64,000 nt of DNA from Anaerolineae bacterium. Lineage in GTDB: Bacteria; Chloroflexota; Anaerolineae; J102. Under the pieces are notes generated by a model. The model was not told the DNA's origin. It saw only the letters and a program-made list of their open reading frames with translations, and did not search any database. The stretch spans positions 5,147 through 69,146 of the forward strand of contig JALXCB010000046.1 of the NCBI GenBank assembly GCA_026991225.1, in the 5' to 3' direction. Positions 7,525-25,065 of the stretch are shown here, one piece after another; the first letter of the stretch is position 1, and the number at the start of each line of letters is the position of its first letter. A program made the position numbers and the translations under genes.

Positions 7525-8700
7525 TCACGCCTTGGCCGAGGCCGCAACCATCCCCGCCATCGCAGTCACCCAATCATCCCGGTCGTTCAGGCAAGGGATG
7601 AGCTGGAAATGCTCCCCGCCCGCGTCCAGAAACGTCTCCCGACCCGCGATACCGATCTCCTCCAGAGTCTCCAGGCAATCGACCGTGAAGGAAGGGGTGA
7701 CCACGGCCAGGCGCTTCACGCCCACGCGGGCCAGACGCGCCAGCTCATCCGCGGTGGCGGGCTCCAGCCACTTGTCCCGCCCCAGGCGAGATTGGAAGGC
7801 CACCGAATACTGGTCGGGCCGCAACGCCAACGTTTGGGCCACAAGCCGCGTCGTGGTGAAGACCTGGTGGCGATAGCACACCGCATGGGCCGCGGCCGCC
7901 GTCGCGCAGCAGCCATCGCGCAGGCAGCCAGCGCCCCGCGGCGCGGTCTTATGTAAATGCCGCTCGGGGATGCCGTGATAGCTGAATAGCAGGTGAACGA
8001 AATCATTTGAGTCGAGGATGGGACGTATGCTGGCGGCCAGTGAGGCGATGTAGTCGGGATGATCATAATGGGGCGGGATGATGCGCAGCGTGTACTCCCC
8101 CACCTGCCGGGCAATGGCCTTCCTATCCGCCTGAGCCTGGGCCACGGCCCCCCGCAGCCAGCGCGTCGCGGCCCTGTCACCCGTCACCTTCACGCCGACC
8201 AGCTTCTCGAACTCCGCCAGCGTCTTCAACGCCAGGGTTTCGTAAGTGGACATGGCGTAGTGCGGGTACATGGGCAGAAGGATCACCTCCCCGCCCGGTT
8301 CGATGCGTCCCAACAACTTCTCCAGGCCCGACCGCACCGAGGGCTGGCCGTAGCGCATGGCCATGACCACGGGCATATTCAGTCGGGCCTCCAGCTTGGC
8401 CCGCACCCGGTCGGTGAGTGCGATCAGCGGCGAGCCATCCTCCCACCAAATGCTTTGATAGGCGCTGGCGGATTGGGCCGGGCGTTTGGGCAAGATGAAG
8501 CGTTTGACGATGAGCCAGCGCAGGGGATAGGGCATGTCGAGGATGCGTGAATCCATCAGGAATTCATCCAGATAGACCCGCACGTCCGCTTCGTCGGGCG
8601 AAGCTGGCGACCCAAGATTCGCCAAGATGACGCCGCGTAAATGTAACCGATTTGAATAAGCGGGCGTCTTATCGTCGGTTGGCGATAACGCTACATTCAT
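7525..8700 (-). CDS. hemH: Ferrochelatase (coproporphyrin ferrochelatase type)
   Basis: About 392 aa from the ATG at 8700 (MNVALSPTDDKTP...). Ferrochelatase core motifs and a C-terminal Cys-rich segment (CLRDGCC...C). The ORF track extends the N-terminus through an AT-rich AATGAATG-repeat region, probably spuriously. Confidence 0.85.
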   Translation of the reverse strand: MNVALSPTDDKTPAYSNRLHLRGVILANLGSPASPDEADVRVYLDEFLMDSRILDMPYPLRWLIVKRFILPKRPAQSASAYQSIWWEDGSPLIALTDRVRAKLEARLNMPVVMAMRYGQPSVRSGLEKLLGRIEPGGEVILLPMYPHYAMSTYETLALKTLAEFEKLVGVKVTGDRAATRWLRGAVAQAQADRKAIARQVGEYTLRIIPPHYDHPDYIASLAASIRPILDSNDFVHLLFSYHGIPERHLHKTAPRGAGCLRDGCCATAAAAHAVCYRHQVFTTTRLVAQTLALRPDQYSVAFQSRLGRDKWLEPATADELARLARVGVKRLAVVTPSFTVDCLETLEEIGIAGRETFLDAGGEHFQLIPCLNDRDDWVTAMAGMVAASAKA

Positions 8701-8920
8701 TTTCTTTCGTTTTGTTCTTTCATTCATTGCATTCATTTCATTCATTGCCATTGCCAACGCGTCAAAGCCAAAGACGATGAGGACGCGACCAGACAAAAGG
8801 TGAAAATAAAAGCCTTTTTCGCGTCGTCAGCTCTTCGCATCTTTGCGGCATGACATTTTTCGAGGCAGAATCAGACTGTCCTGGCAGTTGCCATTTCTCT
8901 CCAAAGGAGGTTCTTTCACA

Positions 8921-9466
8921 ATGAAAACATGGTTGACTGTTCTACTTGCCCTGATATTGCTTCTCCTGCCTCGGGCGTCCTTCGCCTGGGGAGGAGGGCC
9001 GGATTGGCAACAGATTCAGACAGACGCCAACAGGATTCATGAACAGGCCATCACGCTGGAAGATGAAGCCTTTCAAATGCGTCTGATGGCGCAGCAAGCC
9101 CGTGATATGGAGACGAATCCTGATATCATTCGCGATCTGGATGGCATCATTGCGGCAGCCAGAGATATCGAGCAGGACGCCGCAGCCATTGCGGTCACCG
9201 CGGATGACATCAACTACCGCATCGATCACTCGGAAGTCACCACGCTTTCTCTTGCAGAAGATATTGGTAAGATGGCGAACCGCATCCTGTGGACCGAAGG
9301 TCAGATCGGGATCATGTCGGACCGCATCGTGGTCAGCGAATTCCTCATCAGCGAGAGCGTCCTAACGCTGGTCCGCTCCATCCAGGAGACCAAGGACGCG
9401 ATGACGGTGAATACGCAGACCATTCAGTGGTATAACAGAGACATCCAACAGCAGCTCGTTTTTTAA
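8921..9466 (+). CDS. Secreted hypothetical protein (signal peptide, helical)
   Basis: SD AAGGAGG 10 nt before the ATG. MKTWLTVLLALILLLLPRASFA signal peptide. No recognisable domain. Directly upstream of the ECF sigma factor. Confidence 0.55.
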   Translation: MKTWLTVLLALILLLLPRASFAWGGGPDWQQIQTDANRIHEQAITLEDEAFQMRLMAQQARDMETNPDIIRDLDGIIAAARDIEQDAAAIAVTADDINYRIDHSEVTTLSLAEDIGKMANRILWTEGQIGIMSDRIVVSEFLISESVLTLVRSIQETKDAMTVNTQTIQWYNRDIQQQLVF

Positions 9467-9510
9467 CGACATTCTGCGGGCGGTTCCCGGGATAAACTCG
9501 GGGCCGCCCC

Positions 9511-10131
9511 ATGATGCATGCAACGAGGCCGTCTATGATGCCAACAAAGATGGATGATGTTCATGAACAGAAGCTCATCCAGGGGTTGAAAGCCCATGAA
9601 TCCTGGGCCTGTGAGGAGCTCATCGAGCGATTCGCGGATATGGTGTACCGCGTGTGCTATCGTATCCTGCAGAACCCCCAGGAGGCTGAAGACGCCATGC
9701 AGGAGACGTTCATTACGGTGTATCGCCGCATCGATAGTTTTCGCGGTGACGCGAAGTTGTCGAGCTGGCTCTACCGCGTGGCTACCAACATGGCGCTGAG
9801 CATGTTGCGCTCGAACATCCGAAAACAAGGCCGGGATCTGTCGCTGGAAAACGACGAGGACGATGAAAGGCCTCTGTCCGATGCGGAGGTCATCGTGCCC
9901 GAAACGTTCATCTTGCAACAAGAAAACCGCGCCCTGCTGGAACAAGGCCTGGAAGCTATGTCGCCCAAACTGCGGGCGGCGTTGATGCTCTATGAGATCG
10001 AAGGGTTTTCCATGAAAGAAACAGCCCAGGCATTGGGCGTTTCAGAGTCCGCCGCGAAGCTACGGGTTCACCGCGGACGCCAATTTCTGCAAAAGTATCT
10101 TGCACAGTATTACGAGGAGGTTATGACATGA
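9511..10131 (+). CDS. ECF-type RNA polymerase sigma factor (sigma-70 family)
   Basis: Sigma-70 region 2 (...FITVYRRIDSFRGDAKLSSWLYRVATN...) and region 4 (...EIEGFSMKETAQALGVSESAAKLRVHRGR...). The true start may be an internal Met (9535-9550). Confidence 0.8.
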   Translation: MMHATRPSMMPTKMDDVHEQKLIQGLKAHESWACEELIERFADMVYRVCYRILQNPQEAEDAMQETFITVYRRIDSFRGDAKLSSWLYRVATNMALSMLRSNIRKQGRDLSLENDEDDERPLSDAEVIVPETFILQQENRALLEQGLEAMSPKLRAALMLYEIEGFSMKETAQALGVSESAAKLRVHRGRQFLQKYLAQYYEEVMT

Positions 10132-10961
10132 ATCATCAACAGGCAAGCGCACTCGCTCCCGATTATGTGGACGGGCTTTTGGACGAAGCGCAGCGCGCAG
10201 ACTTCGAAGCGCATCTCCGGGAGTGTCCTGACTGTCAGGAATCGGTGGCTAGCTTTCGGGCCCTGCGCCAGACGCTGAGCAAAACGAAGGATATGGCTCT
10301 TTCCGACGAGGCCCGTCTGCGGCTTTATCAGCGTTTCAACGAGGAGCGGGCCCGCCGCGGGGAGAGTTTGCTACGCGTCCCCGCGGATCTGCTGGCCAGG
10401 GTGAAACCCAAGGCCGCGGCCACGCCTGAAGCGGCCAAAAAGCTGGCGGGCGGCGGCAAAGAGGCCACCCTGCTGGCCGCAGATAGCGGCGCGCACATGG
10501 CCCGATCCACCGGGCGAGGCGCCAAACGTTTTGGCGGCAAAATGAAGCGAAGCGCGAGCAACGCGGGGCGGCATCTGGTGGAAGTGGCCAGGGAGGCGGG
10601 CCGCACCGCCGCGAATGTGGGTCGCATCGTCACTGTGGAGAGTTATGAGGTGCTGCGAGAAGCGCCGCGGAGCAAAGGCAAGGCCCTGCTGGCTCCGCCC
10701 AAACTCATGGGCAAGGGCGTGAAAGCGGGCGCGCGCATGATGACCGGCACGGCGAAAGTTGCGGCCAAGAGCGCCAAAGGGGGGGCTGTCTTGATAAAGG
10801 ATGGGGCCAGCACGGCCGCGACGGGCATGCTCGAGAGCGCCCGCCTGGGCAAGGCCTTTGCCGAATCCACAGACAAGCTGGCCCAGGCCGGGGAGCAGAT
10901 GGCGCGCGGGGTCAAAGAGGCCGCCCGCACCGTGATCGAAGCCTCGGAAAGCGAGGATTAG
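10128..10961 (+). CDS. Putative anti-sigma factor with N-terminal zinc-finger (ZAS-like) motif and Lys/Ala-rich low-complexity C-terminus
   Basis: ATGA overlap with the sigma-factor stop. ...HLRECPDCQES... HxxxCxxC motif. No predicted TM helix. Confidence 0.6.
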   Translation: MNHQQASALAPDYVDGLLDEAQRADFEAHLRECPDCQESVASFRALRQTLSKTKDMALSDEARLRLYQRFNEERARRGESLLRVPADLLARVKPKAAATPEAAKKLAGGGKEATLLAADSGAHMARSTGRGAKRFGGKMKRSASNAGRHLVEVAREAGRTAANVGRIVTVESYEVLREAPRSKGKALLAPPKLMGKGVKAGARMMTGTAKVAAKSAKGGAVLIKDGASTAATGMLESARLGKAFAESTDKLAQAGEQMARGVKEAARTVIEASESED

Positions 10962-10999
10962 CGCCATAGCAATGGAAACTCGGCCCACTGGGCAGGAAA

Positions 11000-11160
11000 A
11001 TCTCTCACGCAAAAGCGTCAAGTCGTCAAGACAAGTTTGCAAGTCGCAGGTGGCGGGTGGCAGGTGACAGGCGGAAGGAAGCAAGTAGAGCTGCGCAAGC
11101 TGACTTGCCACCTGCCAACACTTCTTTTCCCCCTTGCGCCCTGGCGTCTTTGCATGAGAT
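11000..11160. repeat. Family G element, copy G1 (terminal inverted repeats; 3' TIR abuts the hemL stop)
   Basis: ATCTCTCACGCAAAAGCG...TTTGCAAGTCGCAGGTGGCGGGTGGCAGGTG...CTTGCCACCTGCC...CGTCTTTGCATGAGAT. Confidence 0.75.
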
Positions 11161-12449
11161 CAAATGGCGCGGAAGGTCCTGTGCGCGGCTTCGACGGTGG
11201 CGTCGATGACCGCATCGTCGTGGGCCAGGGACATGAAGCCGGCCTCGAATTGGGAGGGGGCGAGATAGACGCCCGCTTCCAGCATGGCCCGGAAGTAGCG
11301 GGCGAAGCGTGCCGTATCGCTGGCCGCAGCCGAATCCCAGTCGGTGACCGGGCCTTCGGTGAAGAAGGCGGCGAACATGGTACCCACTCGGGTCTGATAG
11401 ATGGGCACGCCCGCGGCCCGGGCCGCGTCGCCGATGCCCCGAGACAATCGCTCCGTCCGGGCCTCCAGCGTCTCCCACACACCCGGCTCCGTCAGCTTGC
11501 GCAGGGTGACGATGCCCGCGGTCATGGCCAGGGGGTTGCCGGAAAGGGTCCCGGCCTGATAGACCGACCCCACCGGCGCCACCATCTCCATGATCTCCCG
11601 CCGGCCGCCGTACGCGCCCACAGGCAGCCCCCCGCCGATGACCTTGCCCAGGCAGGTGAGGTCGGGCCGGATGCCGTAGAGGGTTTGCGCGCCGCCCGGA
11701 TGCACGCGAAAGCCGGTCATCACCTCATCGAAGATGAGCAGCGCGCCATGGGCCTGGGTTATCGCCTGCAGCCCCTGCAAAAAGCCCTCTGCCGGAGGCA
11801 CGACGCCCATATTCCCGGCCACGGGCTCCACGATGACCGCGGCGATCTCTTCGGGGAACGCGTCGAACAGCGCCCGCACCGAGTCCAGATCGTTGTAGCG
11901 GGCGACCAGGGTGTCCTGCACCATGGCCGGGGGCACGCCGGGCGAATCGGGCAGGCCCAACGTCGCCACGCCCGACCCTGCCTGCACCAGCAGCAAGTCG
12001 GCATGGCCGTGATAGCAGCCCTGGAATTTGATGATCTTGTGGCGGCCGGTGTAGGCCCGGGCCAGGCGCAGCGCGCTCATGGTGGCCTCGGTGCCCGAAT
12101 TGACGAAGCGCACCATCTCGATGTTGGGCATGAATTCGGTCACCAGCCGGGCCAACTCGATCTCCAGGGGCGAAGGAGCGCCGTAGCTGGTGCCCTTGCG
12201 AACCGCCTCGGTCAGGGCGTCGACCACGTCGGGATGGGCGTGGCCCAGGATGAGCGGGCCCCACGAGAGCACGTAATCGATGAAGCGGTTGCCGTCCACG
12301 TCGAACAGATAGGGCCCCTCGCCCCGCTCGATGAACAGGGGCTGGCCGCCCACCGACTTGAAGGCCCGCACGGGCGAATCCACCCCGCCGGGGAGCAGGC
12401 TTTGGGCCTGGGAAAAGAATTGTTGGGATCGGGTGGTGTTGAGAGTCAT
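11160..12449 (-). CDS. hemL: Glutamate-1-semialdehyde 2,1-aminomutase
   Basis: 429 aa with the classic HemL N-terminus (...[23 protein letters not shown]...) and a class-III aminotransferase fold. Confidence 0.9.
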
Positions 12450-12508
12450 AGTGCTGGATCAGGAGTGGGGTTGGCAAGTTATGACGACTAAGTTATAATG
12501 TTGAAACC

Positions 12509-12739
12509 GTGAAGGCGACGAACTATTTCATCAACAGCGTTTTGAAACGGCGTCCCTACTTGCGATGGGAATGGATCGAACGGGTAATAGCCCATCCGAT
12601 TCGCACCGAAACGCAACCAAACGGACGCATCCGCTTTTGGGGCTGGATTGAAGAAAGAGGAAAGTATTTGCGCGTTGTCACAGAAGCGGATGGAGAAACC
12701 GTTCACAATGCCTTTTTCGATCGTCGTTTCAAACCTTAG
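12509..12739 (+). CDS. DUF4258-family small protein (putative toxin of a DUF4258/DUF2283 pair)
   Basis: 76 aa, GTG start. Basic small protein immediately upstream of a DUF2283-like ORF. Confidence 0.5.
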   Translation: MKATNYFINSVLKRRPYLRWEWIERVIAHPIRTETQPNGRIRFWGWIEERGKYLRVVTEADGETVHNAFFDRRFKP

Positions 12740-12753
12740 CCAGGATTTGCATC

Positions 12754-12990
12754 ATGATCTTCGAGTATTTTCCAGATACGGACATGCTTTATATCCAATT
12801 GAACGAGGGCATCAGCGTGGAATCGGCAGAAATCGCTCCCGGCGTTGTCATCGATCTGGACGATCAGGGCAGCATCATTGGTATTGAAATCGAGGATGCC
12901 AGCGAGCGATTCAATTTGTCTCGACTGGAGCTGAAAGGACTCCCGCTGGCTGACCTCGTCGTTCGGGACAGGTTGCCTCAAGCGGCCTGA
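12754..12990 (+). CDS. DUF2283-family small protein (putative antitoxin partner)
   Basis: 78 aa. MIFEYFPDTDMLYIQL... is the characteristic DUF2283 N-terminus. Confidence 0.55.
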   Translation: MIFEYFPDTDMLYIQLNEGISVESAEIAPGVVIDLDDQGSIIGIEIEDASERFNLSRLELKGLPLADLVVRDRLPQAA

Positions 12991-13089
12991 GCAGGACCTT
13001 ATCGGACAATCCAACGGCTCGCCGATACGAACGGAAATGGGAATGCTGATGACACGGATGCTTCGCAACGCAGATTTCCGCAGATCTGT

Positions 13090-13290
13090 TCCGAAAATAG
13101 CGTTGGCCCTCCCTGCCAAAAGTCGCCATGCCAACGTTGGGCGAGGCTGCAACGGACGTGATGAGTAATGCGTAATCCGTGAGATCGTTACGCATCACGC
13201 ATTACGCATTACGTGCTTGGCTTCCCGCGCCGCCCTGGCCGCGAGACATTTTCATCGGTATCGGCGCGCCGCCGCGCATGGCGCCTTCGT
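13090..13290 (+). repeat. Family A MITE-like element, copy A1
   Basis: ...CCGAAAATAGCGTTGG...CCAACGTTGGGCGAGGCTGCAACGG + CGTGATGAGTAATGCGTAATCCGTGAG...CGCATCACGCATTACGCATTACG hairpin + GGCTTCCCGCGCCGCCCTGGCCGCG...TTTTCATCGGTATCGGC tail. Confidence 0.8.
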
Positions 13291-13365
13291 TCTGATTTTT
13301 TCTGCGTTCATCTGCTTGCATCCGCGTTCACCTGCGTTCTCTCATCCTGGCTTCGGAACAAGGAT
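13291..13365. repeat. Family D copy D2 (overlaps the last ~15 codons and stop of hemY)
   Basis: CTGATTTTTTCTGCGTTCATCTGCTTGCATCCGCGTTCACCTGCGTTCTCTC. A D-like fragment also sits at about 13060-13090. Confidence 0.7.
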
Positions 13366-14750
13366 TTCACCGCCATCTCGCCCGAATGGATGCAGTCGGG
13401 GATGCCGATGCCGTGGTAGGCGTTGCCAGCCAGGGCCAGGCCCGGCCAGCGCTCCAACCCGGCCAGGATGCGTCCCACCCGAGCGGGATGGCCCACGTTG
13501 TATTGGGGCATGGCCCGCGGCCAGATAAAGACGCGGTGAAGAAAGGGCTCAGCGGTGACGCCCAGGGTCAGGCGCAGCTCCTCCCGGGCGATGGCCAACA
13601 GCCCTTCTTCCGTCCAATCGATGGCGTCTTCCTGGCCCGCGCGGCCCACGAACACCCGCAGCAAGGCCATGCCTTCGGGCGCGCGGTGGGGAAATTTGGT
13701 AGAGGTCCAGGTGCAGGCCAGGGCTTTGCGCCCCTCCCGGCGGGGGATCACGTAGCCGTAGCCGTCCAGCGGGCGGGGGACGTCGGCCAGGCGGTAGGCC
13801 AGGGAGATGGTGGCCGTGGACGCGTAGGGGATGGCGTCCAGCAGGGAAGCGAGTTCAGGGTCGTGCGGGCGCAGCAGGCGGGCAGAGACGAACGCGGGCG
13901 CAGCCAGGATGAGTCGGTCAGCCTTCAACACTGCATACTGATTACTGAATACTGAATATTGGTGACTATCCTTTTTCAACTCCCTCACCTCCACACCCAA
14001 CCTCAACTCCGCCCCCAATTTACGCAACCTCACCACCAACGCCTCCACCAGCTCGGCCAGGCCCGTTTGCGGGGTGACGAACATGCTGCGGGAGCCGGGC
14101 GCGGCCCCGTTGCGCTTCATCCGCTCCCGTTTGGCGGCCAGCGCGCCCCGCACCAATCCCCCATGCTTCACCTCCAGGTCTCGCAGATAGGGGAAGGTGG
14201 CTTGCAGGCTGAGCTGGTCGCCATCGCCCGCGTAGATGCCGCTCATCAACGGCTCGATGAGCGCCTCATAAGCCTCCCGCCCCAGGCGACGGCCCACAAA
14301 CCGGCCCAGGCTCTCCTCCCCGGGCGACTTCGCGGGCGGCAGCAGGAAGTCGAGGCCCATGCGCAGCTTGCCAGGCCAGGAGATGAGCCCGGTGCGCAGC
14401 ATCCCCCCGAAATCAGTGGGGATCATCATGGTCAGACCGCCGGGCAGGGGATGCAGGCGGCCTTTGTGCAGGATGTAGGTGGCTTTCTGCTTGGGGTTGC
14501 TGCCATGCAGACGGTCGGCGACGCCCAGCTCTCGGGCCAGGGCCATGCCCCACGGCTTTATGGCGATGAAGGTGTCGGGCCCGCCTTCGATGACGAAGCC
14601 ATCCACCCGCTCGGTCGCGATCTTCCCGCCCCAGCGGTGGGCTTTTTCCAGCACGATGACCTCATCGGGCGGGTTTTGGGGCCGGGTGAGGGCGAAGTAG
14701 GCGGCGGAGAGGCCGGCGATGCCACCGCCGATGATGATGAGTCGAGTCAT
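13308..14750 (-). CDS. hemY: Protoporphyrinogen/coproporphyrinogen III oxidase (HemY/CgoX, FAD-dependent)
   Basis: 480 aa. N-terminal MTRLIIIGGGIAGLSAAY dinucleotide-binding motif. Amine-oxidase fold. It carries an in-frame E-family repeat copy (about 13929-13970). Its last ~15 codons plus the stop lie in a D-family repeat. Confidence 0.85.
   Translation of the reverse strand: MTRLIIIGGGIAGLSAAYFALTRPQNPPDEVIVLEKAHRWGGKIATERVDGFVIEGGPDTFIAIKPWGMALARELGVADRLHGSNPKQKATYILHKGRLHPLPGGLTMMIPTDFGGMLRTGLISWPGKLRMGLDFLLPPAKSPGEESLGRFVGRRLGREAYEALIEPLMSGIYAGDGDQLSLQATFPYLRDLEVKHGGLVRGALAAKRERMKRNGAAPGSRSMFVTPQTGLAELVEALVVRLRKLGAELRLGVEVRELKKDSHQYSVFSNQYAVLKADRLILAAPAFVSARLLRPHDPELASLLDAIPYASTATISLAYRLADVPRPLDGYGYVIPRREGRKALACTWTSTKFPHRAPEGMALLRVFVGRAGQEDAIDWTEEGLLAIAREELRLTLGVTAEPFLHRVFIWPRAMPQYNVGHPARVGRILAGLERWPGLALAGNAYHGIGIPDCIHSGEMAVKSLFRSQDERTQVNADASR
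13929..13970. repeat. Family E copy E2, in frame inside hemY
   Basis: ACTGCATACTGATTACTGAATACTGAATATTGGTGAC, translated on the minus strand as ...HQYSVFSNQYAV... Confidence 0.55.
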
Positions 14751-14764
14751 AGAGTGATCTTACG

Positions 14765-14840
14765 TTGAGTAATCAGTTATCAGTAAACAGTAATCAGTGG
14801 GGGCGCGGATGGATACTGATTACTGATCACTGTTTACTGA
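14765..14840. repeat. Family E copy E3 (palindrome between hemY start and hemE stop)
   Basis: GAGTAATCAGTTATCAGTAAACAGTAATCAGTG...CACTGATTACTGATCACTGTTTACTGATTAC. Confidence 0.7.
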
Positions 14841-15908
14841 TTACTTCCGGTTAAATTCATGGACCATTGCGACGACGGCCCGCACGTTCTCCACGGGCGT
14901 GTGCTGCAAGATGCCGTGGCCCAGGTTGAAGATGTGGCCCGGTCGACCCGCCGCGCGGGTCAACACGTCCCGCACCTGGTTTTCCAGCTCGGGCAGGGGG
15001 GCGAAGAGTGCGGTGGGATCGAGATTGCCCTGCACGGCCACGTCGTCGCCCAACAGCGCCCATCCTTCATCCAGAGGGATGCGCCAATCCAGGCCGATGA
15101 CATGCCCGCCCGCGGCCTTCATCTCCCCTAGCAGCGTGGTTGCGCCCACGCCGAAGTGGATGACGGGGACGTCGGCCCGGGCCATGAGGGTTTGTAGAAT
15201 CTGGCGGGAATAGGGCTGGACGAAACGGCGGTAATCCTGAGGATTCAGTGCGCCCACCCAGGAATCGAAGAGCTGCAAGGCCTGTGCGCCCGCGTCGGCT
15301 TGCGCCAGCAGATAATCGATGAGCACGGGCGTGAGTTTTTGCATGAGGGCGCGCCAGGCGGCGGGCTGCCCGTACATGAGCTTCTTGGTTTCGACGAAGT
15401 TGCGGGACGGCCCGCCCTCGATAATGTAGGCGGCCAGGGTGAAGGGCGCTCCTGCGAAACCGATGAGGGGAACGTCCCGACCATCCAACTCCGTCCGCAC
15501 CAGGCGGATGGCCTCGTACACATGCCCCAGGTCGGCCCGCACGTCCACTGGCCGGAGCGCGGCCACGTCGTCGGGCGAGCGCACGGGGTTGTGGATGACG
15601 GGCCCGCGGCCGGGGACGAATTCCAGCTTCAGGCCCATGGGCGGCAGGGGCAGGAGGATGTCGGCGAAGAGGATGGCCGCGTCCACGCCCAGGGTGTCCA
15701 CGGGCTGGAGGGTGATCTCGGCCGCGACCTCGGGCCGGGCGATCATCTCCAGGATGCTCTTGTGCTGGCGGCGGATGGCCTGGTATTCGGGCATGTAGCG
15801 CCCGGCCTGGCGCATGAACCAGACGGGCGTCGTGTCAGTAATCAGTCTTCGAGTGGCTCTCAGAAATCTCGATGTTGGCTCGTTAGTCATCATTGTCAGG
15901 GTTCTCAT
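14841..15908 (-). CDS. hemE: Uroporphyrinogen decarboxylase
   Basis: ...TPVWFMRQAGRYMPEY... is the canonical HemE N-terminal motif. Start may be Met6/Met7 of the listed ORF. Confidence 0.9.
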   Translation of the reverse strand: MRTLTMMTNEPTSRFLRATRRLITDTTPVWFMRQAGRYMPEYQAIRRQHKSILEMIARPEVAAEITLQPVDTLGVDAAILFADILLPLPPMGLKLEFVPGRGPVIHNPVRSPDDVAALRPVDVRADLGHVYEAIRLVRTELDGRDVPLIGFAGAPFTLAAYIIEGGPSRNFVETKKLMYGQPAAWRALMQKLTPVLIDYLLAQADAGAQALQLFDSWVGALNPQDYRRFVQPYSRQILQTLMARADVPVIHFGVGATTLLGEMKAAGGHVIGLDWRIPLDEGWALLGDDVAVQGNLDPTALFAPLPELENQVRDVLTRAAGRPGHIFNLGHGILQHTPVENVRAVVAMVHEFNRK

Positions 15909-15919
15909 TGGAAAAGTAA

Positions 15920-15974
15920 TCAGTCATCAGTCCAACGGTTTGTTCCTCACTGATTACTGCTTACTGATAACTGA
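15920..15974. repeat. Family E copy E4 (between hemE start and the rSAM stop)
   Basis: GAAAAGTAATCAGTCATCAGTCC...CACTGATTACTGCTTACTGATAACTGATTAC. Confidence 0.65.
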
Positions 15975-17129
15975 TTACTTCGCCTCGCGAAAGGCTTCAG
16001 GAACGTACACACACGCCGGGTCAGTTTCCAGATAATCGCCGGTGACGCCATAGGCCCGGCCGCGCTGGCCGCCGCACACGTCGCGGAATTCGCAGACGCC
16101 GCAGCGGCCCTTCAGTTTGTCGGGGTCCCGCAGGTCTTTGAATAAAGGATGGTTGCGATAGACCTCGACCACGTCATCTTTGCGGACGTTTCCGGCCACG
16201 ATGGGCAGGAAGCCGGAGGGTTCGATATTGCCGATGTGGGAGATGAAGAGGAAGCCATTGCCGTCGTTGACGCCTTTGGTGGGGCGGTTGAGGCCGTCCG
16301 CGTACTGGAAGCCCGCGCCCTGGAAGGCGATGGGCGCATCTTCGCCCAGTTCCTGGCGCTTGCGCTGGATGGCCACGCGGCGATACATGGGCGCGGCCGT
16401 GGCTTTGACGTCGAAAGGCGCTTCTTGGGCCAGGTCATACAGCCAATTGAAAATGCGCTCGTGCTCCTCGGGGGAGATCATCCAGTCGATCTGGCCCCGG
16501 CCCGTGGGCACCAGGAAGAAGACGGACCACTGCACCGCGCCCACCTCTTCGATGAAAGGCACCATCTCGGGCAGGATGTGGGCGTTGTGTTTGGCGACGG
16601 TGGTGTTCACCTGCACGCTCAGGCCCACGTCATGCGCCCGATGCAGGATGTCCATGGTGCGCTGCCAGGAGCCCGCCACCTTGCGGAAGTCGTCGTGGAT
16701 GGCGGGGCGGGGCGCATCCAGGCTAAGGGCGATGCGGCGGATGCCCGCGTCCCGGGCCTTTTGCAGCCGCTCTTTGGTGGGCAGAGCCGTGGCCGTGGGC
16801 GTCAGGGAGCAGCGCAGGCCCTTTTCAGTGGCGTAGGCGATGAGATCGAACAGGTCGCGGCGCATCATGGGGTCGCCGCCGGTGAAGATGAGGATGGGAT
16901 GGTTGCCGAACGCGGCCAGCCGATCGATGAGCTGAAAGCCTTCCTCGGTGGTGAGTTCCAGGGGATGGCGTTGGGGTTGGGCGTCGGCCCGGCAGTGGAC
17001 GCAGGCGTAGGCGCAGGCCCGGGTCACTTCCCAGGCGATGGTGAAGGGCGCTTTGTCGAAGTCCGCGTGCACCATGCGCCGGTCGTGGTAGGTGCGTTCG
17101 GCTGTGGCGGAGGGGGTGAGGTTGGACAT
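15975..17129 (-). CDS. Radical SAM/SPASM-domain protein, AhbD/NirJ-like, embedded in the heme operon
   Basis: 384 aa. CAYACVHC (CxxxCxxC). C-terminal Cys cluster ...KGRCGVCEFRDVCGG...DPACVY (SPASM-type auxiliary cluster motifs). Sits between hemB and hemE on the same strand. Confidence 0.7.
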   Translation of the reverse strand: MSNLTPSATAERTYHDRRMVHADFDKAPFTIAWEVTRACAYACVHCRADAQPQRHPLELTTEEGFQLIDRLAAFGNHPILIFTGGDPMMRRDLFDLIAYATEKGLRCSLTPTATALPTKERLQKARDAGIRRIALSLDAPRPAIHDDFRKVAGSWQRTMDILHRAHDVGLSVQVNTTVAKHNAHILPEMVPFIEEVGAVQWSVFFLVPTGRGQIDWMISPEEHERIFNWLYDLAQEAPFDVKATAAPMYRRVAIQRKRQELGEDAPIAFQGAGFQYADGLNRPTKGVNDGNGFLFISHIGNIEPSGFLPIVAGNVRKDDVVEVYRNHPLFKDLRDPDKLKGRCGVCEFRDVCGGQRGRAYGVTGDYLETDPACVYVPEAFREAK

Positions 17130-17263
17130 GGGAGGATTGGGATTGGGATTGGAAGATTCGTCTTTTGTGACACGGATGGAAGGAACACGGATGACATTCG
17201 ATTGATGCTATCATTAAGCCATTTTCCCATCCGTGTTTTCTTTTATCCGTGTTGCATGACCTT

Positions 17264-18334
17264 TTACAGCAATTTTGCGGCGTCCAGGGCGAAGTAGGTG
17301 AGGATGAGATCAGCGCCCGCGCGTTTGATGGCGAGCAGGCTCTCCAGCATGACGCGGGTCCCGTCGATCCAGCCGTTGGCGGCCGCGGCCTTGATCATGG
17401 CGTATTCGCCCGAGACCTGGTATGCGGCCAGGGGGAGCTTCACCTGCTCCTTGAGCTGCGCCAGGATGTCCAGGTAGAAGCTGGCGGGCTTGACCATGAT
17501 GATGTCCGCGCCTTCGGCGATGTCGATCTGCACCTCGCGCAGGGCCTCGCGGGCGTTGGCCGGGTCCATCTGATACTGGCTGCGGTCGCCGAATGCGGGC
17601 GGGCTTTCGGCCGCGTCGCGGAAGGGACCGTAGAGGGCGCTGGCGTACTTGGCCGCATAGCTCATGATGGGGATGTGTTCGAACCCGGCGTCATCCAGGC
17701 CCGAGCGGATAGCGCCCACCATACCGTCCATCATGCCGCTGGGCGCGACCATGTCCGCGCCGGCGCGAGCGTGGGTCACCGCGGCCCGGCTGATGTAATC
17801 CAGGGTGGGGTCGTTGAGGACGTAGCCCGTGGGGAGATTGGGGTTGTACGCGGGCTCGTCGGGCGTGTTGATGATCCCGCAATGCCCGTGATTGGTGTAT
17901 TCACACATGCAGATGTCGCTGACCACGACCAGGCCGGGCAGCGCCCGCTTCAAGGCCCGAATGGCTTCAGGGATGATGCCGTGAGGATCGTCATTTTCGC
18001 TGCCGTAGGGGTCCTTGTGTTCGGGAATGCCGAAGAGGATGACCGAGCGCACACCCAGACTCCACGCCCGCTCCGCTTCCTCGATCATCGTGTCGATGGA
18101 GAGCTGGAACTGGCCGGGCATGGAGGGAATGGGGTGACGAACGCCCTCGCCGTGGCGCACGAACAGGGGGTAGATGAAATCCTCGGGATGGAGATGGGTT
18201 TCCTGCACCATTTGCCGCAGCGCGGGGGAAAGGCGCAGGCGGCGAGGGCGGGCCAGGAGGGAGCGATGGCCGTTGCCGGGCCTCGATGACGTCACAGCTG
18301 TGGGCAGGATGGTGGGGAAAGAAGTTGCGCTCAT
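17264..18334 (-). CDS. hemB: Porphobilinogen synthase (delta-aminolevulinate dehydratase)
   Basis: Start taken at [10 protein letters not shown]... (ATG 18332-18334). ALAD family motifs. Overlaps the hemD stop region. Confidence 0.9.
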
Positions 18335-18372
18335 GATAAAAGTCCTTATGAGAGGAAACGAAAGATCGAAGA

Positions 18373-19158
18373 CTAAAGACTGACCGCCGGCTCTCCGAAC
18401 CAATCTCTCAATGCTGCGACCAGTCCTGGCGTGGTGTATTCTTCGGGCATGATGTCCACAGTCAGGCCCGCTTGCCGGGCTGCGTCCGCGGTGACGGGCC
18501 CGATGCAGGCGATGACCGCCCCGGCCAGGGCCTCTACGCCCAGGCCCGCCTCTCGCTCCAGGCGAATGAGGGTGTTGCGTACAGTGGAGGGACTGGTGAA
18601 TGTGATGGCGTCCACCAGTCCCGAGTGCAGAGCCGCGGGCAGATCCTCGCCCCCGCTCCCCAGCACGGTCTCATAGGCTGTGACCACGTCCACCCGCACA
18701 CCCCGGGCCCGCAGGCCGTCGGGCAGCACGTCCCGAGCCTGGGCGGCCCGCGGGAGCAGCACCCGCTGGCCCGCGGGAATGGGCAGCGCGGCCAGCAGAC
18801 TCTCCCCCACCGCTTTGGGCGGGATCAGGTCCACGTCCAGCCCCAGACGACGTTCGACGGCCCAGGCGGTGGCCGGGCCCACCGCGGCGATGTTCGGGCC
18901 GTGCAGCGCGTTTGGGGGCAATCCCAGCGCATCCAGGCGTCGGGCCACGGCCTCCACCGCATTGGCGCTGGTGAAGAGGAACCAGTCGTAGTCGCGGGCG
19001 TGGCGCAGGGCCACGTCCAGCGGGCCGGCGTCCGCGGGCGGTTGGATGGCGATGGCGGGATAAAGCAGGGTGCGGAAGCCTGCGGCCTCCAGCAGGGCCT
19101 TCAGTTCGTCCGCCTGGTGCGCGGTTCGGGTGATGACGATGGTGGGAGAAAAAGTCAT
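18373..19158 (-). CDS. hemD: Uroporphyrinogen-III synthase
   Basis: About 262 aa from the ATG at 19156-19158 ([28 protein letters not shown]...). HemD-like two-domain pattern. The listed longer ORF has an N-terminal extension without an SD. Confidence 0.7.
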
Positions 19159-19237
19159 GGTGAATGGTGAGAGATGATTTGACGGTCTCATGTCCATTAT
19201 GTTAGGATCAATGCAATCATTGTTCAGGAGATGCGCT

Positions 19238-19474
19238 ATGGCAGTTGAAGTCAAAACCGTCGAGATCCGAGACGCCAAAAAAGAGTTCCAGCGATGGCTC
19301 GCACTGGCGCAACAGGGCGTCGAGGTCATTGTCACCGATGAAGGCGAACCATTGGCTCGCATCTCAGCGGTTCGACCAAACGAGGGCCGCGTCGCTGGAC
19401 TGAACCGAGGTGAAATCAAAGCTGCCGAAGATTTCGATGAGCCGCTGCCAGAGTCCTATTGGATCGGGGAGTAA
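19238..19474 (+). CDS. Type II antitoxin (Phd/YefM/VapB-like)
   Basis: About 79 aa. MAVEVKTVEIRDAKKEFQRWLALAQQGVEVIVTDEGEPLARI... Stop TAA overlaps the ATG of the downstream PIN gene (GAGTAAATG). Confidence 0.6.
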   Translation: MAVEVKTVEIRDAKKEFQRWLALAQQGVEVIVTDEGEPLARISAVRPNEGRVAGLNRGEIKAAEDFDEPLPESYWIGE

Positions 19475-19876
19475 ATGCGCCTTCTGCTCGACACACACAT
19501 TTTTATCTGGTGGGCGGATGAGCCAGAACGTCTTGATGGACGGCTGCTCGACGCTCTGCTGAACGCTGAAAATGAATTGATTTTGAGTGTTGTCAGTCTT
19601 TGGGAAATGCAGATCAAAGCGCAATTGGGGAAATTAACGTTCCAAAGGCCGTTGAAGGAGCTCGTTCATTTACAACAAAGCGTCAACGGGTTGCAACTGC
19701 TTCCTGTAACGTCAAATCACGTGTTTTTGCTGGATGAACTGCCACTCATTCACAAGGATCCATTTGATCGGTTGATCATCGCTCAGGCGTTGGCGGAGAA
19801 TCTGATCCTCGTGAGTCACGATAGAGTATTCGAGGACTATCAGGTCCTCCTGTGGAAGCCCGATATGCAGGGATAA
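19475..19876 (+). CDS. vapC: PIN-domain ribonuclease toxin (VapC family)
   Basis: 133 aa. MRLLLDTHIFIWW...DPFDRLIIAQA...LVSHD carries PIN-domain acidic residues. Confidence 0.8.
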   Translation: MRLLLDTHIFIWWADEPERLDGRLLDALLNAENELILSVVSLWEMQIKAQLGKLTFQRPLKELVHLQQSVNGLQLLPVTSNHVFLLDELPLIHKDPFDRLIIAQALAENLILVSHDRVFEDYQVLLWKPDMQG

Positions 19877-19878
19877 AG

Positions 19879-20790
19879 TTAATCGGAAGTCGATAAGATT
19901 TCGACAGCGCCCTGGACAAGCGCCTCTTCCGCCAGGGCCCGGCCCAGCGCCAGGGGATCGTCGCCCGTCGCCTCCACGCGTAGCGTGCGGCGGCCATCGG
20001 GCGAGGCCACCAGCCCGGTGAGATGCAGGCCGGCATCGACAGGATGGGCGTATGCGGCCACGGGAATGGCGCAGCCGCCGCCCAATCCCGCCAGAAAGGC
20101 CCGCTCGGCCTGTGCGGCCGCCCGCGCGGCGGGATCTTCCACCGCGGCCAGCAGAGCCAGGGTGCGTTCATCGTCCGCCCGGCACTGCACGCCCAACACG
20201 CCCTGCCCCGGCGCAGGCAGCATGACGTCCAGGGGCAGATACTGCGTCACCGCGTCTTCCAGGCCCAACCGGGTGACCCCGGCCGCGGCCAGCACAATGG
20301 CGTCGTACTGGCCCTCCCGAGCCTTGCGGATGCGGGTGTCCACATTGCCGCGGATGGGTTTGACCGCCAGGTCGGGGCGATAGGCCAGCAGTTGGGCCTG
20401 ACGCCGGGGGCTGGAGGTGCCCACCACCGCGCCCGCGGGCAATGCATCCAGCGTGCGTCCCGCAGGGCAGATGAGCGCGTCTCGGGCGTCGGCCCGCGGG
20501 GGCGTGAGACCGATGGTGAGGCCGGGCGCATCCTCCACCGGCAGGTCTTTCAGGGAATGGACGGCCGCGTCCACCCGGCCCTCCCGCAAAGCCCGCTCCA
20601 GCTCTGCGGTGAAGAGCCCCTTGCCGCCGATGAGGGGCAGGGGCTTGTCCAGAATCCGGTCGCCTTGGGTGACGATGACCTGGATGTCGATGGTCAGGCC
20701 GGGATGCGCCGCCCGCAGCAGATCCGCGACGTAGTCGGTCTGCCAGCGGGCCAGTGCGGAGGGGCGGGTGGCGAAGGTGAGAGTGGGCAT
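19879..20790 (-). CDS. hemC: Hydroxymethylbilane synthase (porphobilinogen deaminase)
   Basis: Start at MPTLTFATRPSALARWQT... (ATG 20788-20790). ...GNVDTRIRK...QGVLGVQCRADDERTL... HemC motifs. Confidence 0.9.
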   Translation of the reverse strand: MPTLTFATRPSALARWQTDYVADLLRAAHPGLTIDIQVIVTQGDRILDKPLPLIGGKGLFTAELERALREGRVDAAVHSLKDLPVEDAPGLTIGLTPPRADARDALICPAGRTLDALPAGAVVGTSSPRRQAQLLAYRPDLAVKPIRGNVDTRIRKAREGQYDAIVLAAAGVTRLGLEDAVTQYLPLDVMLPAPGQGVLGVQCRADDERTLALLAAVEDPAARAAAQAERAFLAGLGGGCAIPVAAYAHPVDAGLHLTGLVASPDGRRTLRVEATGDDPLALGRALAEEALVQGAVEILSTSD

Positions 20791-20831
20791 GAGAGTGGAG
20801 ATTGGGATCAGGATAGGATGAGGGAACGTAG

Positions 20832-20972
20832 CCAGGTTGGCGCGGGAAGCCACTCCCGTAATGCGTGATGCGTAAGGAGCTCACGGATTACGCATTACGC
20901 ATCACGTCGGTTGCAGACTCGCCCACCGTGGGCTTCGAGTCATTTTTGCAAACCAACGCTATTTTCGGAGCA
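20832..20972 (-). repeat. Family A copy A2 (inverted orientation)
   Basis: Same modules in reverse complement. Its terminal CCGAAAATAGCGTTGG module supplies the hemA stop codon. Confidence 0.8.
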
Positions 20973-22224
20973 GATAGTCTTCCAGGGCGAAGAGGTCCTG
21001 AATGGCGCGGGCGTAGGGTTCGGCGTTGCCGCGGGCGGCCTGGGCCTTAAGCTGCAAGGTGGGTTCATGCAGGAGTTTGTTGACCAGCCGATGGGCGAGG
21101 CGGGTCATCTGATCGGCGACGATGGTATCATCGTGCGGAAGCTTGCGCAAGGCTTGTTCCAGCTCGGCCCGGGCCAGATCGTTGGCCTTGCGGCGCATGC
21201 CCACCAGCACCGGCAGCACTTGGCGGCTTCCCAGCCAGGCCATATAGCCATCCGCCGCCTCGGCGACCATGACTTCCACCTGAGGAATAGCGGCCTGCCG
21301 CTCCTCCAGGTTGTGCTGCACGATCTCCTGAATGTCATCCAGCACAAAAAGCTCCACGTGGGGAAGGCTCGCGACCGCGGGATCGATGGCGCGCGGCACG
21401 GAAAGATCCACCAGGATGAGAGGACGGGCCCGGCGGGGCGTCATGGCGGGCGTGATCAGGAAGCCGTCGCCCCCCGCGGCCACGATCACGGCGTCGGCCC
21501 AGCTCAGGCCATCTGGCAGTTGGCTGAGGGGGTGGGCAGTCGCCTGGACGCGGTCAGCCAGGGCCTGCGCCCGGGCCAGAGTGCGGTTGTAGATGCGGAT
21601 GCGGGCGTCGCTGAGCCCGGCCGCGTGCTTGGCCACCAGCGACCCCATCTCCCCCGCGCCCACGATGGCCAGACGCTTGCTCTGACTCAAGGCCGCATGA
21701 CCATCCACCCAGCGCATGACCACCGACCCGATGGAGACGGCGTTGCGGCTGATGGGGGTTTCGGTGCGGGCCCGCTTCCCCGTCTGAATGGCCGTGCGGA
21801 AGAGCTCGGCCAGTTGCGGGCCGATGGCGTGCACTTCCAGCCCCATCTCATAGGCATCCCGCACCTGGCCCAAAATCTGTGGTTCGCCCAGCACCATGGA
21901 ATCGAGCCCGCAGGCGACGCGGACCAGATGGTCGACGGCATCCCGCCCCTGCCAGACATACAGATAGCGTTGCAACTGGCTGGCGGAGAATCCCGTTCGG
22001 GCCTGGAAGAAGTCGCGGAGGAGGCCCATAGCCGCAGACGCGTCCGAGGCCGCCAGATACCACTCCGTACGATTGCAGGTGGAGAGGACGGCGGCCTCAT
22101 CGATGCTGGGGTGGGCCGTAAGTTGGATCAGGGCCTCTCGGGCAGCCTCGCCTTCGATGGCGAAGGCCTCGCGATGGGCCAGCGGCGTGGTGCGGTGGTT
22201 CAAGCCAAGGCAAAGGATCGTCAT
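20959..22224 (-). CDS. hemA: Glutamyl-tRNA reductase
   Basis: Start at MTILCLGLNHRTTPLAHREAFA... ...LSTCNRTEWY... catalytic Cys motif. NADPH-binding GAGEMG. Stop codon lies in the terminal module of an A-family repeat. Confidence 0.9.
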   Translation of the reverse strand: MTILCLGLNHRTTPLAHREAFAIEGEAAREALIQLTAHPSIDEAAVLSTCNRTEWYLAASDASAAMGLLRDFFQARTGFSASQLQRYLYVWQGRDAVDHLVRVACGLDSMVLGEPQILGQVRDAYEMGLEVHAIGPQLAELFRTAIQTGKRARTETPISRNAVSIGSVVMRWVDGHAALSQSKRLAIVGAGEMGSLVAKHAAGLSDARIRIYNRTLARAQALADRVQATAHPLSQLPDGLSWADAVIVAAGGDGFLITPAMTPRRARPLILVDLSVPRAIDPAVASLPHVELFVLDDIQEIVQHNLEERQAAIPQVEVMVAEAADGYMAWLGSRQVLPVLVGMRRKANDLARAELEQALRKLPHDDTIVADQMTRLAHRLVNKLLHEPTLQLKAQAARGNAEPYARAIQDLFALEDYLLRK

Positions 22225-22413
22225 AATCGACGCAGAAATCAGGAAGGGCGGTTCGGAATAGAAGTTAAGCAAACCTCATAATTTCTAAGTAAACCTTATC
22301 ACAGATTGCAATCGACGACCAAAAAATGTCTTCTCCAAAACCCCGAGAAAACAAAGAATGCGATGAATCCTACATTAAAAGTGGCTAAAAACCGAGGTGA
22401 AACACGCGCTCAA

Positions 22414-23666: not shown

Positions 23667-24854
23667 TCATAGCAGCTCGATGGCCATAGCCACGGCCTCG
23701 CCGCCGCCCAGACAGAGCGCGGCCACGCCCCGCCGCCCGCCCGTCTGGCGCAGGGCGTAGATCAGGGTGGTGAGGACGCGGGCGCCGCTGGCTCCCAAAG
23801 GATGCCCCAGGGCGATGGCCCCGCCGTGGATATTGACCTTCTCCGGGTCTAGCCCCAGTTCGATGATGTTTTGCAGGGATTGGGCGGCGAAGGCTTCGTT
23901 CAGCTCGAACAGATCGACGTCGGCCAGGCTCCAGCCGATGCGGTCCATGAGGCGGCGGATGGCGTGGGGGGGCGCGGTGAAGACTTTGAGGGGCTCGACC
24001 GCGGCGTGGGTGTAGCCGATGATGCGGGCCAGGGGCGTCAGGCCATGGGCTTGAGCGTACTCGGGATGGGCGATAACCGTGGCGGCTGCGCCGTCGCTGA
24101 TAGGCGGCGCATTGCCCGCGGTGACCGTGCCCCCTTCCTCGAACGCGGGCCGCAGTCGAGCCAGGGCCTCCAGGCTCGTGTCCGGGCGGATGGGCTCATC
24201 CCGATCCACGACCACCTCCTTGCGCTTCTGTTTCACCGTGATGGGAACCATCTCATCTTTGAACAGCCCCTCCTCGGTGGCCCGAACCGCGCGCATGTGG
24301 CTCTGATAGGCGAACTGGTCCTGCATCTCGCGAGTGATGTTGAAAGTGCGGGCGATCCATTCCGCCTCGTTGCCCATGTGCAAGCCGTTGAAAGGATCGA
24401 TGAGGCCGTCATGCACGGTAGCGTCCAGCACCTCGCCATTGCCCAGGCGGTAGCCGAAGCGGGCTTTGGGCAGCATGTAGGGCCCCATGCTCATGGCCTC
24501 CATTCCCCCTGCCACATAGAGCCGACCATCGCCGGCGCGGATGGCGCTGGCCGCGAACATGACCGCGCGCAGGCCCGAACCGCACACCTTGTTCAGGGTG
24601 ACCGCGCCCACGCTCTCGGGCAGGCCGCCGAAGACGGCCGCCTGGCGGGCCGGGGCCTGGCCCGTGCCCGCGGGGATGACCTGCCCCATGAACACTTCCT
24701 CGACCTCGGCGGGATCAATGCCCGACCGTTCCACCACCGCCCGGATGACGTGCGCGCCCAGTTTGGGCGCAGGGATGTTGCTGAGCGCACCGCCCAACCG
24801 GCCGCCGGGCGTGCGGGCTGCGGCAAGGATGACAGGATAAATCGGTTGGTTCAT
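23667..24854 (-). CDS. Acetyl-CoA C-acetyltransferase (thiolase II)
   Basis: Start at [18 protein letters not shown]... Thiolase active-site regions (...NKVCGSGL..., ...[12 protein letters not shown]..., C-terminal ...[13 protein letters not shown]). Confidence 0.85.
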
Positions 24855-24867
24855 GACAAGGCTCCTG

Positions 24868-25065
24868 TTCCGAAAATAGCGTTGCATTGGTTTACAAAAA
24901 TAACTCGAAGCCCCCGTTGGGCGGGTCTGCTACAGACGTGATGCGTAATCCGTAATCCGTGAGGTCATTACGCATCACCCATTACGCATTACGTAGCTGG
25001 CTTCCCGCGCCGCCCTGGCCGCGGGGCGTTTTCATCGGTATCGGCAAACGTCGCTCGCGGCGCAT
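24868..25065 (+). repeat. Family A copy A4 (fills the whole thiolase-to-pdp spacer)
   Basis: All three modules present. Confidence 0.8.

Follow-up and report, generated by a model that had tools for sequence, protein, structure and literature searches.

A putative AhbD-type coproheme decarboxylase gene in a haem operon without chdC from an Anaerolineae bacterium

The haem biosynthesis cluster of an uncultured Anaerolineae bacterium was analyzed in a 64-kb stretch of DNA (assembly GCA_026991225.1, contig JALXCB010000046.1, positions 5,147 to 69,146), called the window in what follows. On the minus strand the genes succeed one another in the order hemA, hemC, hemD, hemB, a radical S-adenosylmethionine (SAM) gene, hemE, hemY and hemL, with hemH located 2.4 kb beyond. 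On balance, we favour the reading that the radical SAM protein is an enzyme of the AhbD type, which would finish haem b in an operon devoid of both chdC (hemQ) and a ferrochelatase of the CpfC type, and would be fed by a HemH of the diderm type. The noteworthy feature appears to be that chdC and cpfC were lost together, an AhbD-like gene being kept beside a ferrochelatase that looks like the protoporphyrin type. Genes were picked by their bias in GC content at third codon positions (45 genes in the window) and confirmed with Pfam and NCBIfam; these scans bore out the list and the coordinates of hem genes given in a first-pass annotation of the same DNA (Table 1).

The radical SAM protein was first assigned to a family. 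It matches the NCBIfam model TIGR04053 with 469.9 bits (cut-off 395), residues 23-377 being aligned to positions 2-366 of the 366 positions of the profile. The second best model is that of AhbD (TIGR04545), with a full-length alignment and 359.3 bits. Lower scores were obtained with NirJ2 (239 bits), NirJ1 (167 bits) and NirJ (154 bits), for which the cut-offs are 500-650 bits, and with PqqE and MftC (106-118 bits); the AhbC model does not exceed 239 bits either, and neither a HemN_C domain nor a HemN-family model was present among the Pfam and NCBIfam matches of the protein. It is thus AhbD-like rather than a relative of NirJ, PqqE or HemW, in agreement with the first-pass annotation. No functional name is assigned to TIGR04053 by NCBI, and a literature search found no paper that names it; we regard it as the probable bacterial sister group of AhbD, the haem synthase of archaea and sulfate reducers. 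The closest homologues (78-100% identity) come from metagenome-assembled genomes, the named ones being Anaerolineales or Chloroflexi; they are labelled "TIGR04053 family" at NCBI and at times "AdoMet-dependent heme synthase" at JGI. A search of solved structures gave none close to the protein.

Its cysteines were then compared with those of described AhbDs. Three of them (C39, C43 and C46) form the radical SAM motif CX3CX2C, and four others (C343, C346, C352 and C373), which are the only cysteines of the C-terminal half, form the motif CX2CX5CX20C. Six of these seven positions are invariant, and C39 is nearly so, in 45 family members sharing 37-84% identity. Fix et al. 2023 (PMC10452713) reported that CX3CX2C and CX2CX5CX20-38C are conserved in all AhbDs, and that four extra cysteines, corresponding to a second auxiliary cluster, are confined to the AhbDs of methanogens and sulfate reducers. 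Both of the motifs common to all AhbDs are found in our protein, with a spacing of X20. Because these motifs are present and the AuxI cysteines absent, the protein seems to resemble the AhbDs with a single auxiliary cluster of non-methanogenic archaea, in which the AuxI cysteines are likewise missing. The SPASM label given initially has to be corrected: Pfam recognizes a Radical_SAM domain only, and the C-terminal motif is an incomplete version of the eight-cysteine SPASM motif, which is absent in its full form.

The absence of HemQ from the cluster, also claimed in the first-pass annotation, was confirmed over the whole window in three ways. The Chlor_dismutase/HemQ family had no match in the 45 picked genes and in extra small open reading frames (ORFs); tblastn of the window with a HemQ from one related Anaerolineae operon gave a best E-value of 1; and a profile built from ten HemQs of Anaerolineae, searched unfiltered against the six frames, gave a best E-value of 1.4. 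Genes hemN, hemF, hemG, hemJ, ahbA, ahbB and ahbC were not found in the scans of the window either. DyP-type peroxidases and ChdC belong to one structural superfamily, and a DyP-type peroxidase is encoded in the window (34003-34962, plus strand). It was considered as a substitute for ChdC and rejected, since no similarity to the HemQ profile was observed and the operon is 12 kb away.

The distribution of the two decarboxylase genes in related operons was analyzed with two scans. GTDB species-representative genomes were scanned with an alignment of the radical SAM family, for which a narrower family alignment was used, the 45-member alignment being too diverse; 80 loci were obtained and annotated by tblastn (individual loci are designated by L numbers). 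In the Anaerolineae operons that contain it, the radical SAM gene always follows hemA-C-D-B, copies with 73-90% identity following hemB. Among the 25 informative species representatives, hemQ is located directly 3' of the radical SAM gene in ten and is absent there in fifteen. The full layout, first seen in L004 and L005, comprises the radical SAM gene, hemQ, hemE, (two DUF4491 genes), hemH, hemY and hemL; a second layout is the same without hemQ and hemH; and the third, that of the window itself, lacks hemQ, hemH and DUF4491. When only operons with enough flanking sequence are counted, hemH is present inside all 7 hemQ-containing operons and in none of the 12 hemQ-less ones. HemQ encoded in the operons of relatives matches solved coproheme decarboxylases, and the in-operon HemH of a related cluster matches the solved CpfCs of Listeria and Bacillus (E-value 4e-63) and is clearly of the coproporphyrin type. 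Window proteins remain close to those of the full-type operons: identity reaches 66% for HemE and 60% for HemY with L004, and 73-82% for the radical SAM protein with the full-type operons in general.

The reciprocal scan, of JGI metagenomes with a HemQ alignment, gave 80 contigs, among which 69 loci have informative upstream sequence. The radical SAM gene is upstream of hemQ in 49 of these 69 loci, directly so in 48. A fourth layout, in which hemB is directly followed by hemQ without a radical SAM gene, accounts for 15 loci (L104, L124, L128, L135, L152, L156 and L160 among others). In two loci hemA precedes hemQ, and in three, one of which (L163) has a truly stand-alone hemQ, the upstream genes are not hem genes. 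In 66 cases out of 69, hemQ thus belongs to a hem operon and is preceded by the radical SAM gene, hemB or hemA. All four combinations of presence and absence of the two decarboxylase genes occur in the lineage. The radical SAM gene therefore does not sit in the place of HemQ, as had been proposed at first: hemQ directly follows it in ten of the 25 species, operons that have both genes carry them side by side, and other operons lack one or the other. Such an adjacency is what would be expected for two isoenzymes of one step.

To see whether the two types of operon carry different radical SAM proteins, we grouped these proteins by average-linkage clustering on identity, which is to be read qualitatively only. 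Proteins of the hemQ-less clusters, 73-84% identical to that of the window, are interleaved with those of hemQ-containing clusters, and three of the latter (L116, L027 and L117, 80-82% identical) are placed beside the clade of the window. As the proteins from hemQ-less operons form no group of their own, the loss or gain of hemQ and cpfC seems to have occurred repeatedly, with no change apparent in the radical SAM enzyme. The same interleaving means that nothing in the sequences suggests a change of function between enzymes that have hemQ as a neighbour and enzymes that do not.

Some other features of these operons were observed. Two adjacent DUF4491 genes, whose products appear hydrophobic by eye, are found between hemE and hemH/hemY at many loci (13030-13792 in L004); the pair is present in most related Anaerolineae haem operons and missing from the layout of the window. 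Two hemQ-less operons contain a gene of 214-221 codons between DUF4491 and hemY (L014, 13287-13931; L019, 13025-13690). The interval of about 1 kb that holds this gene was considered as the site of a hidden ferrochelatase; this was rejected, the N-terminus of the ORF being helix-turn-helix-like by eye instead.

Members of the family found outside Anaerolineae give a clue to the substrate. TIGR04053 members with 56-62% identity occur in Dehalococcoidia, Actinomycetota, Armatimonadota and Poribacteria, and at 12 loci in these groups (L038-L043, L046, L051, L053, L057, L059 and L065) the TIGR04053 member comes directly after a paralogue with about 30% identity. In the two loci scanned, the best model of the paralogue is AhbC, the scores of 557 and 451 bits not reaching the cut-off (650 bits). 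The product of AhbC is coproheme. Since TIGR04053 members directly follow AhbC-like genes, these pairs support coproheme as the likely substrate of the family. A CcmF-type haem lyase is present near the AhbC-like/TIGR04053 pair of L039. In Solirubrobacterales (L048, L050 and L075) the radical SAM gene adjoins a divergent hemE-hemH-hemY block. Bacillaceae use the coproporphyrin pathway, with chdC and cpfC, and contain members 50-55% identical to that of the window, among them a Bacillus rhizoplanae protein with 544 bits on TIGR04053; in the Bacillaceae loci that were fetched, the radical SAM gene is isolated from hem genes, none of which lies closer than 10 kb. One Paenibacillaceae locus (L060, 8142-12250) contains two tandem TIGR04053-type genes, 56% and 55% identical to that of the window, with a more distant paralogue just upstream on the opposite strand.

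Taken together, the placement of the family, the AhbD motifs, the position beside hemQ in sister operons and the pairing with ahbC-like genes indicate that the family most likely corresponds to a bacterial AhbD-type, O2-independent coproheme decarboxylase. The reaction would then proceed as follows. The [4Fe-4S] cluster bound by CX3CX2C would cleave S-adenosylmethionine and give a 5'-deoxyadenosyl radical, which would take hydrogen from propionates 2 and 4 of coproheme. These propionates would be decarboxylated to vinyl groups, giving haem b without O2 or H2O2, and the surplus electron would leave through the single auxiliary cluster expected at the C-terminal CX2CX5CX20C. Upstream of this step HemY would yield coproporphyrin III, which the diderm-type HemH would need to convert into coproheme; the operon of the window would encode no decarboxylase of this kind besides the radical SAM enzyme.

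The types of HemH and HemY were examined separately. The first-pass annotation had described HemH as CpfC, which is not supported: HemH of the window is 38% identical to HemH of E. coli K-12, the motifs LANLG[ST]P and SYHGIP being present in both, and its identity with CpfC-type HemH proteins from related operons is only 22-26% (26% with L004). Compared with solved structures, it gave no significant match to CpfC, the best match being human ferrochelatase (E-value 7e-10). A 391-amino-acid protein on record is identical to it over the full length. Other homologues fall into two groups: a small Anaerolineae clade with 67-82% identity, and proteins with about 50% identity from Anaerolineales, Caldilineales, Calditrichota, Zixibacteria and Marinilabilia. 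Three contigs of the window's own clade were examined (the window, L001 and L087), and each of them has the diderm-type hemH in physical linkage with the operon. The residues of Listeria CpfC that bind propionates 2 and 4 (T14, Y46, S53 and Y124) were tried as a marker of type and discarded, because the corresponding positions, compared by eye in an alignment, are similar in HemH of the window and in other ferrochelatases and do not discriminate. We also observed in HemH a four-cysteine insertion, C-x4-CC-x9-C, after SYHGIP; it is absent from E. coli HemH and common to homologues from Anaerolineales, another Anaerolineae genome, Calditrichota and Marinilabilia. Some bacterial ferrochelatases contain a comparable internal segment that binds a [2Fe-2S] cluster. 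The small HemH clade of the window has an additional insertion of about 24-26 residues upstream of the cysteine insertion.

For HemY, the best solved relatives are 3I6D (316 bits), which we take to be HemY of Bacillus subtilis, and then 2IVD (Myxococcus PgoX, 268 bits), and the 60% identity noted above is with HemY of clusters that contain hemQ and CpfC. A published phylogeny places the Chloroflexota HemY in a branch supposed by its authors to be CgoX (PMC10740692). HemY of the window probably leans to CgoX, although not decisively. The assignment of the cluster to the coproporphyrin branch, which had been based on HemH as well, stands in part: it is carried by HemY and by the radical SAM gene, because HemH is not of the CpfC type.

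Several observations weigh against the reading that we favour. The radical SAM protein remains below the AhbD equivalog cut-off of TIGR04545 (500 bits). The HemH that is linked to the operon is not a CpfC, and relatives of this HemH with 49-51% identity are encoded immediately before hemF in a Calditrichia genome, or about 3 kb away from it in another genome, three further contexts being uninformative. Gene hemF belongs to the protoporphyrin pathway, and if HemH takes protoporphyrin only, no coproheme would be made. Characterized HemY enzymes use O2, so that the route may not be fully anaerobic. One clearly stand-alone hemQ locus, L163, was found among the 80 related contigs. The literature is also reserved: an AhbD-like enzyme "might be responsible" in coproporphyrin-pathway bacteria according to the review of Layer in 2022 (PMC10114771), and the anaerobic decarboxylase is "yet unknown" in the CgoN paper of 2024 (PMC10965808).

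The best of the alternatives, which we nevertheless consider unlikely, is that chdC, and probably a CpfC-type hemH too, are located elsewhere in the genome. The radical SAM protein would then be a low-oxygen isoenzyme and the diderm HemH a second ferrochelatase, and the locus would be an ordinary one. The region searched is 64 kb of a genome, the radical SAM gene and hemQ frequently occur together (10 of the 25 species representatives and 49 metagenome contigs), and hemQ can be found apart from the operon, as in L163 or in the detached hemQ-hemE-hemH-hemY block of L159. However, nearly all related hemQ loci (66/69) lie inside a hem operon. The hemQ-less operons are the majority (15/25), and the CpfC-type hemH is missing as well from the 12 of them with enough flank, which argues for the loss of a pair rather than the relocation of a single gene. 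In the clade of the window, moreover, the three contigs examined have a different ferrochelatase linked to the operon. With an AhbD-type enzyme as the sole terminal decarboxylase, hemQ would be absent from the rest of the genome as well.

The type of ferrochelatase would be accounted for if the radical SAM enzyme acted before the insertion of iron, either on coproporphyrinogen III, like CgdH/HemN, or on coproporphyrin III, with HemY supplying protoporphyrin IX and HemH acting as a protoporphyrin ferrochelatase. The likeness of HemH to the E. coli enzyme and to ferrochelatases encoded before or near hemF is in line with this, as is the joint loss of chdC and CpfC-type hemH from the operon across the lineage; with neither hemN nor hemF in the window, the radical SAM gene is also the sole candidate decarboxylase of the cluster. 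We find this scheme rather improbable, because the same enzyme, with 73-82% identity and no separate clade, adjoins hemQ and CpfC in sister operons, and distant members follow ahbC-like genes, the product of which is coproheme. So little sequence change makes it unlikely that the enzyme has turned to a reduced substrate without metal, and no substrate of AhbD other than coproheme was found described in the literature. About equally improbable is a related order of reactions, undescribed so far, in which ChdC and CpfC have been lost, the AhbD-like enzyme decarboxylates a metal-free intermediate (coproporphyrinogen III or coproporphyrin III) and the diderm ferrochelatase inserts iron last; it would add one more variant to the known ways of completing haem. 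Finally, it is very doubtful that the radical SAM protein is unrelated to the last step of haem b, as a NirJ-type haem d1 enzyme or a SPASM maturase of peptides or cofactors: it shares the radical SAM fold and a distant similarity with NirJ, PqqE and mycofactocin maturases, and its family has no functional name, but its scores on the NirJ, PqqE and MftC models are low, no nir, pqq or precursor-peptide genes were found near it in the Pfam and NCBIfam scans of the window, and dozens of species keep its gene in the same place, after hemB and before hemE or hemQ.

An AhbD-type decarboxylase of this kind can be compared with known systems. Like the AhbDs of Methanosarcina barkeri and Desulfovibrio vulgaris, on which TIGR04545 bears, the protein of the window aligns over its full length, has both motifs and presumably converts coproheme into haem b. 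Unlike them, it scores below the model's cut-off, it has no AuxI cysteines, so that one auxiliary cluster is expected, and its gene belongs to a hemE/hemY operon, with no ahbA, ahbB or ahbC found in the window. Genomic surveys by the Dailey group reportedly noted AhbD in Gram-positive bacteria with the coproporphyrin pathway. The TIGR04053 "AhbD" of Gram-positive bacteria (Bacillaceae, Actinomycetota) resembles our protein in its score on the model (544 bits in Bacillus rhizoplanae, 470 in the window) and in its sequence (50-55% identity), and it has been proposed as an O2-independent alternative to ChdC (PMC13564367, PMC10114771). It differs in that the gene is alone in the Bacillaceae loci, in genomes that possess chdC and cpfC, whereas that of the window is a fixed member of an operon devoid of both. 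The full-type Anaerolineae operons have the same gene order as the window, apart from the missing genes; the window differs from them by the lack of hemQ, of the DUF4491 pair and of a CpfC hemH, and by the presence of a linked diderm hemH and of two inserted cassettes. ChdC/HemQ catalyzes the step that is proposed here for the radical SAM enzyme, next to which it is encoded in related operons; it is, however, a protein of the chlorite-dismutase family, H2O2-requiring and aerobic according to reviews, with a fold and a chemistry unrelated to those of radical SAM enzymes. CgdH/HemN is likewise a radical SAM enzyme that converts two propionates into vinyl groups, as the anaerobic counterpart of an O2-dependent enzyme, but it belongs to another radical SAM subfamily and its substrate is the metal-free coproporphyrinogen.

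The hybrid HemY/AhbD route suggested in the first-pass annotation is already present in reviews, which state that some bacteria complete the coproporphyrin pathway with AhbD (PMC7242693, PMC13564367, PMC10548856). The 2023 review adds that ahbD colocalizes with hemY/hemH/hemQ or with ahbA/B/C (PMC10548856), and an O2-independent oxidase, CgoN, was shown in 2024 (PMC10965808). The AhbD-like last step is established on genomic grounds, and biochemical proof in a coproporphyrin-pathway bacterium was not found in the literature. O2-free haem synthesis in these bacteria is only partly settled, its last step being named from genomics only. The operon and its relatives are natural test cases, with the same enzyme accompanied by ChdC, devoid of ChdC or placed behind AhbC. 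The ferrochelatase that accompanies the form without ChdC is of the "wrong" type, which bears on the question of whether the type of ferrochelatase predicts the type of pathway.

Table 1. Features of the haem cluster and its surroundings in the window, in order of position (~, approximate start)
Feature	Coordinates	Strand	Basis and remarks
hemH, E. coli/diderm-type ferrochelatase	7525..8700	-	Pfam Ferrochelatase, 290 bits in two stretches
Conserved hypothetical protein between sigma factor gene and hemH	8843..9466	+	No Pfam match
ECF sigma factor	9511..10131	+	Pfam Sigma70_r2, Sigma70_r4_2; position kept in L001, L087
zf-HC2 anti-sigma factor	10128..10961	+	Pfam zf-HC2; position kept in L001, L087
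hemL, glutamate-1-semialdehyde aminomutase	11160..12449	-	NCBIfam TIGR00713, 641 bits
ORF of 76 amino acids upstream of DUF2283 gene	12509..12739	+	ORF; no Pfam family
DUF2283 gene	12754..12990	+	Pfam DUF2283, 64 bits; in hemY-hemL spacer
hemY, HemY-type porphyrinogen oxidase, probably CgoX	13308..14750	-	Pfam Amino_oxidase; TIGR00562
hemE, uroporphyrinogen decarboxylase	14841..15908	-	Pfam URO-D, 431 bits
AhbD-like radical SAM protein, putative O2-independent coproheme decarboxylase, 384 amino acids	15975..17129	-	NCBIfam TIGR04053
hemB, porphobilinogen synthase	17264..~18283	-	Pfam ALAD, 487 bits
hemD, uroporphyrinogen-III synthase	18373..~19158	-	Pfam HEM4
Phd/YefM-like antitoxin, weak match	19238..19474	+	Pfam PhdYeFM_antitox, 24 bits (below cut-off of 29.8)
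PIN-domain (VapC-like) toxin	19475..19876	+	Pfam PIN, 67 bits; end 2 bp from hemC stop codon
hemC, porphobilinogen deaminase	19879..20853	-	Pfam Porphobil_deam, Porphobil_deamC
hemA, glutamyl-tRNA reductase	20959..22272	-	Pfam GlutR_N, Shikimate_DH, GlutR_dimer

Two starts in Table 1 are approximate. The ORF of hemB extends to 18403 and is over-extended at its N-terminus, homologues having 339-351 amino acids. The long ORF of hemD (348 amino acids, up to 19419) is over-extended too, since HEM4 begins at residue 104 and homologues have 252-260 amino acids. It runs about 260 bp past the likely start and overlaps the plus-strand antitoxin gene (19190-19474); this overlap is an artefact of ORF calling due to the high GC content and does not correspond to a true overlap of genes.

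Two small toxin-antitoxin-like cassettes, both on the plus strand, interrupt the operon. The first is located between hemD and hemC; its two genes have the same orientation, the toxin starting at the nucleotide that follows the end of the antitoxin ORF. The VapBC-type pair announced in the first-pass annotation is therefore recovered as a PIN toxin gene preceded by a small antitoxin gene, the match of the latter being weak. The second cassette is in the spacer between hemY and hemL, where a DUF4258/DUF2283 pair had been described: the DUF2283 gene is confirmed, whereas the DUF4258 label is not, the neighbouring 76-residue ORF giving no Pfam match at an E-value of 0.5 or below. The GC content of the cassettes is 51% (PIN) and 53% (hemY-hemL spacer, 858 bp), compared with 65-70% in the hem genes and about 60% in the window overall. 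In L087 (GCA_054045925.1), whose radical SAM protein is 94% identical to that of the window, the spacers at the two sites are of 76 and 27 bp only, and both cassettes are also absent from the operon of L002 (radical SAM protein 84% identical). Given this low GC content and their absence from L087 and L002, both cassettes are foreign DNA that entered and divided the operon recently.

Between hemL and hemH, a plus-strand trio (8843-10961) codes for the hypothetical protein, the ECF sigma factor and the zf-HC2 anti-sigma factor. The trio is kept in L001 and L087, a gene of 181-191 codons occupying the position of the hypothetical protein in both. It may link the synthesis of haem or porphyrin to a stress response. 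On the other side of the cluster a thiolase gene is found at 23667-24887, and the region 27225-32988 contains a set of genes resembling a Na+-translocating decarboxylase (carboxyltransferase, OAD gamma, biotin carrier and OAD beta), as well as an HMG-CoA reductase with an N-terminal domain.

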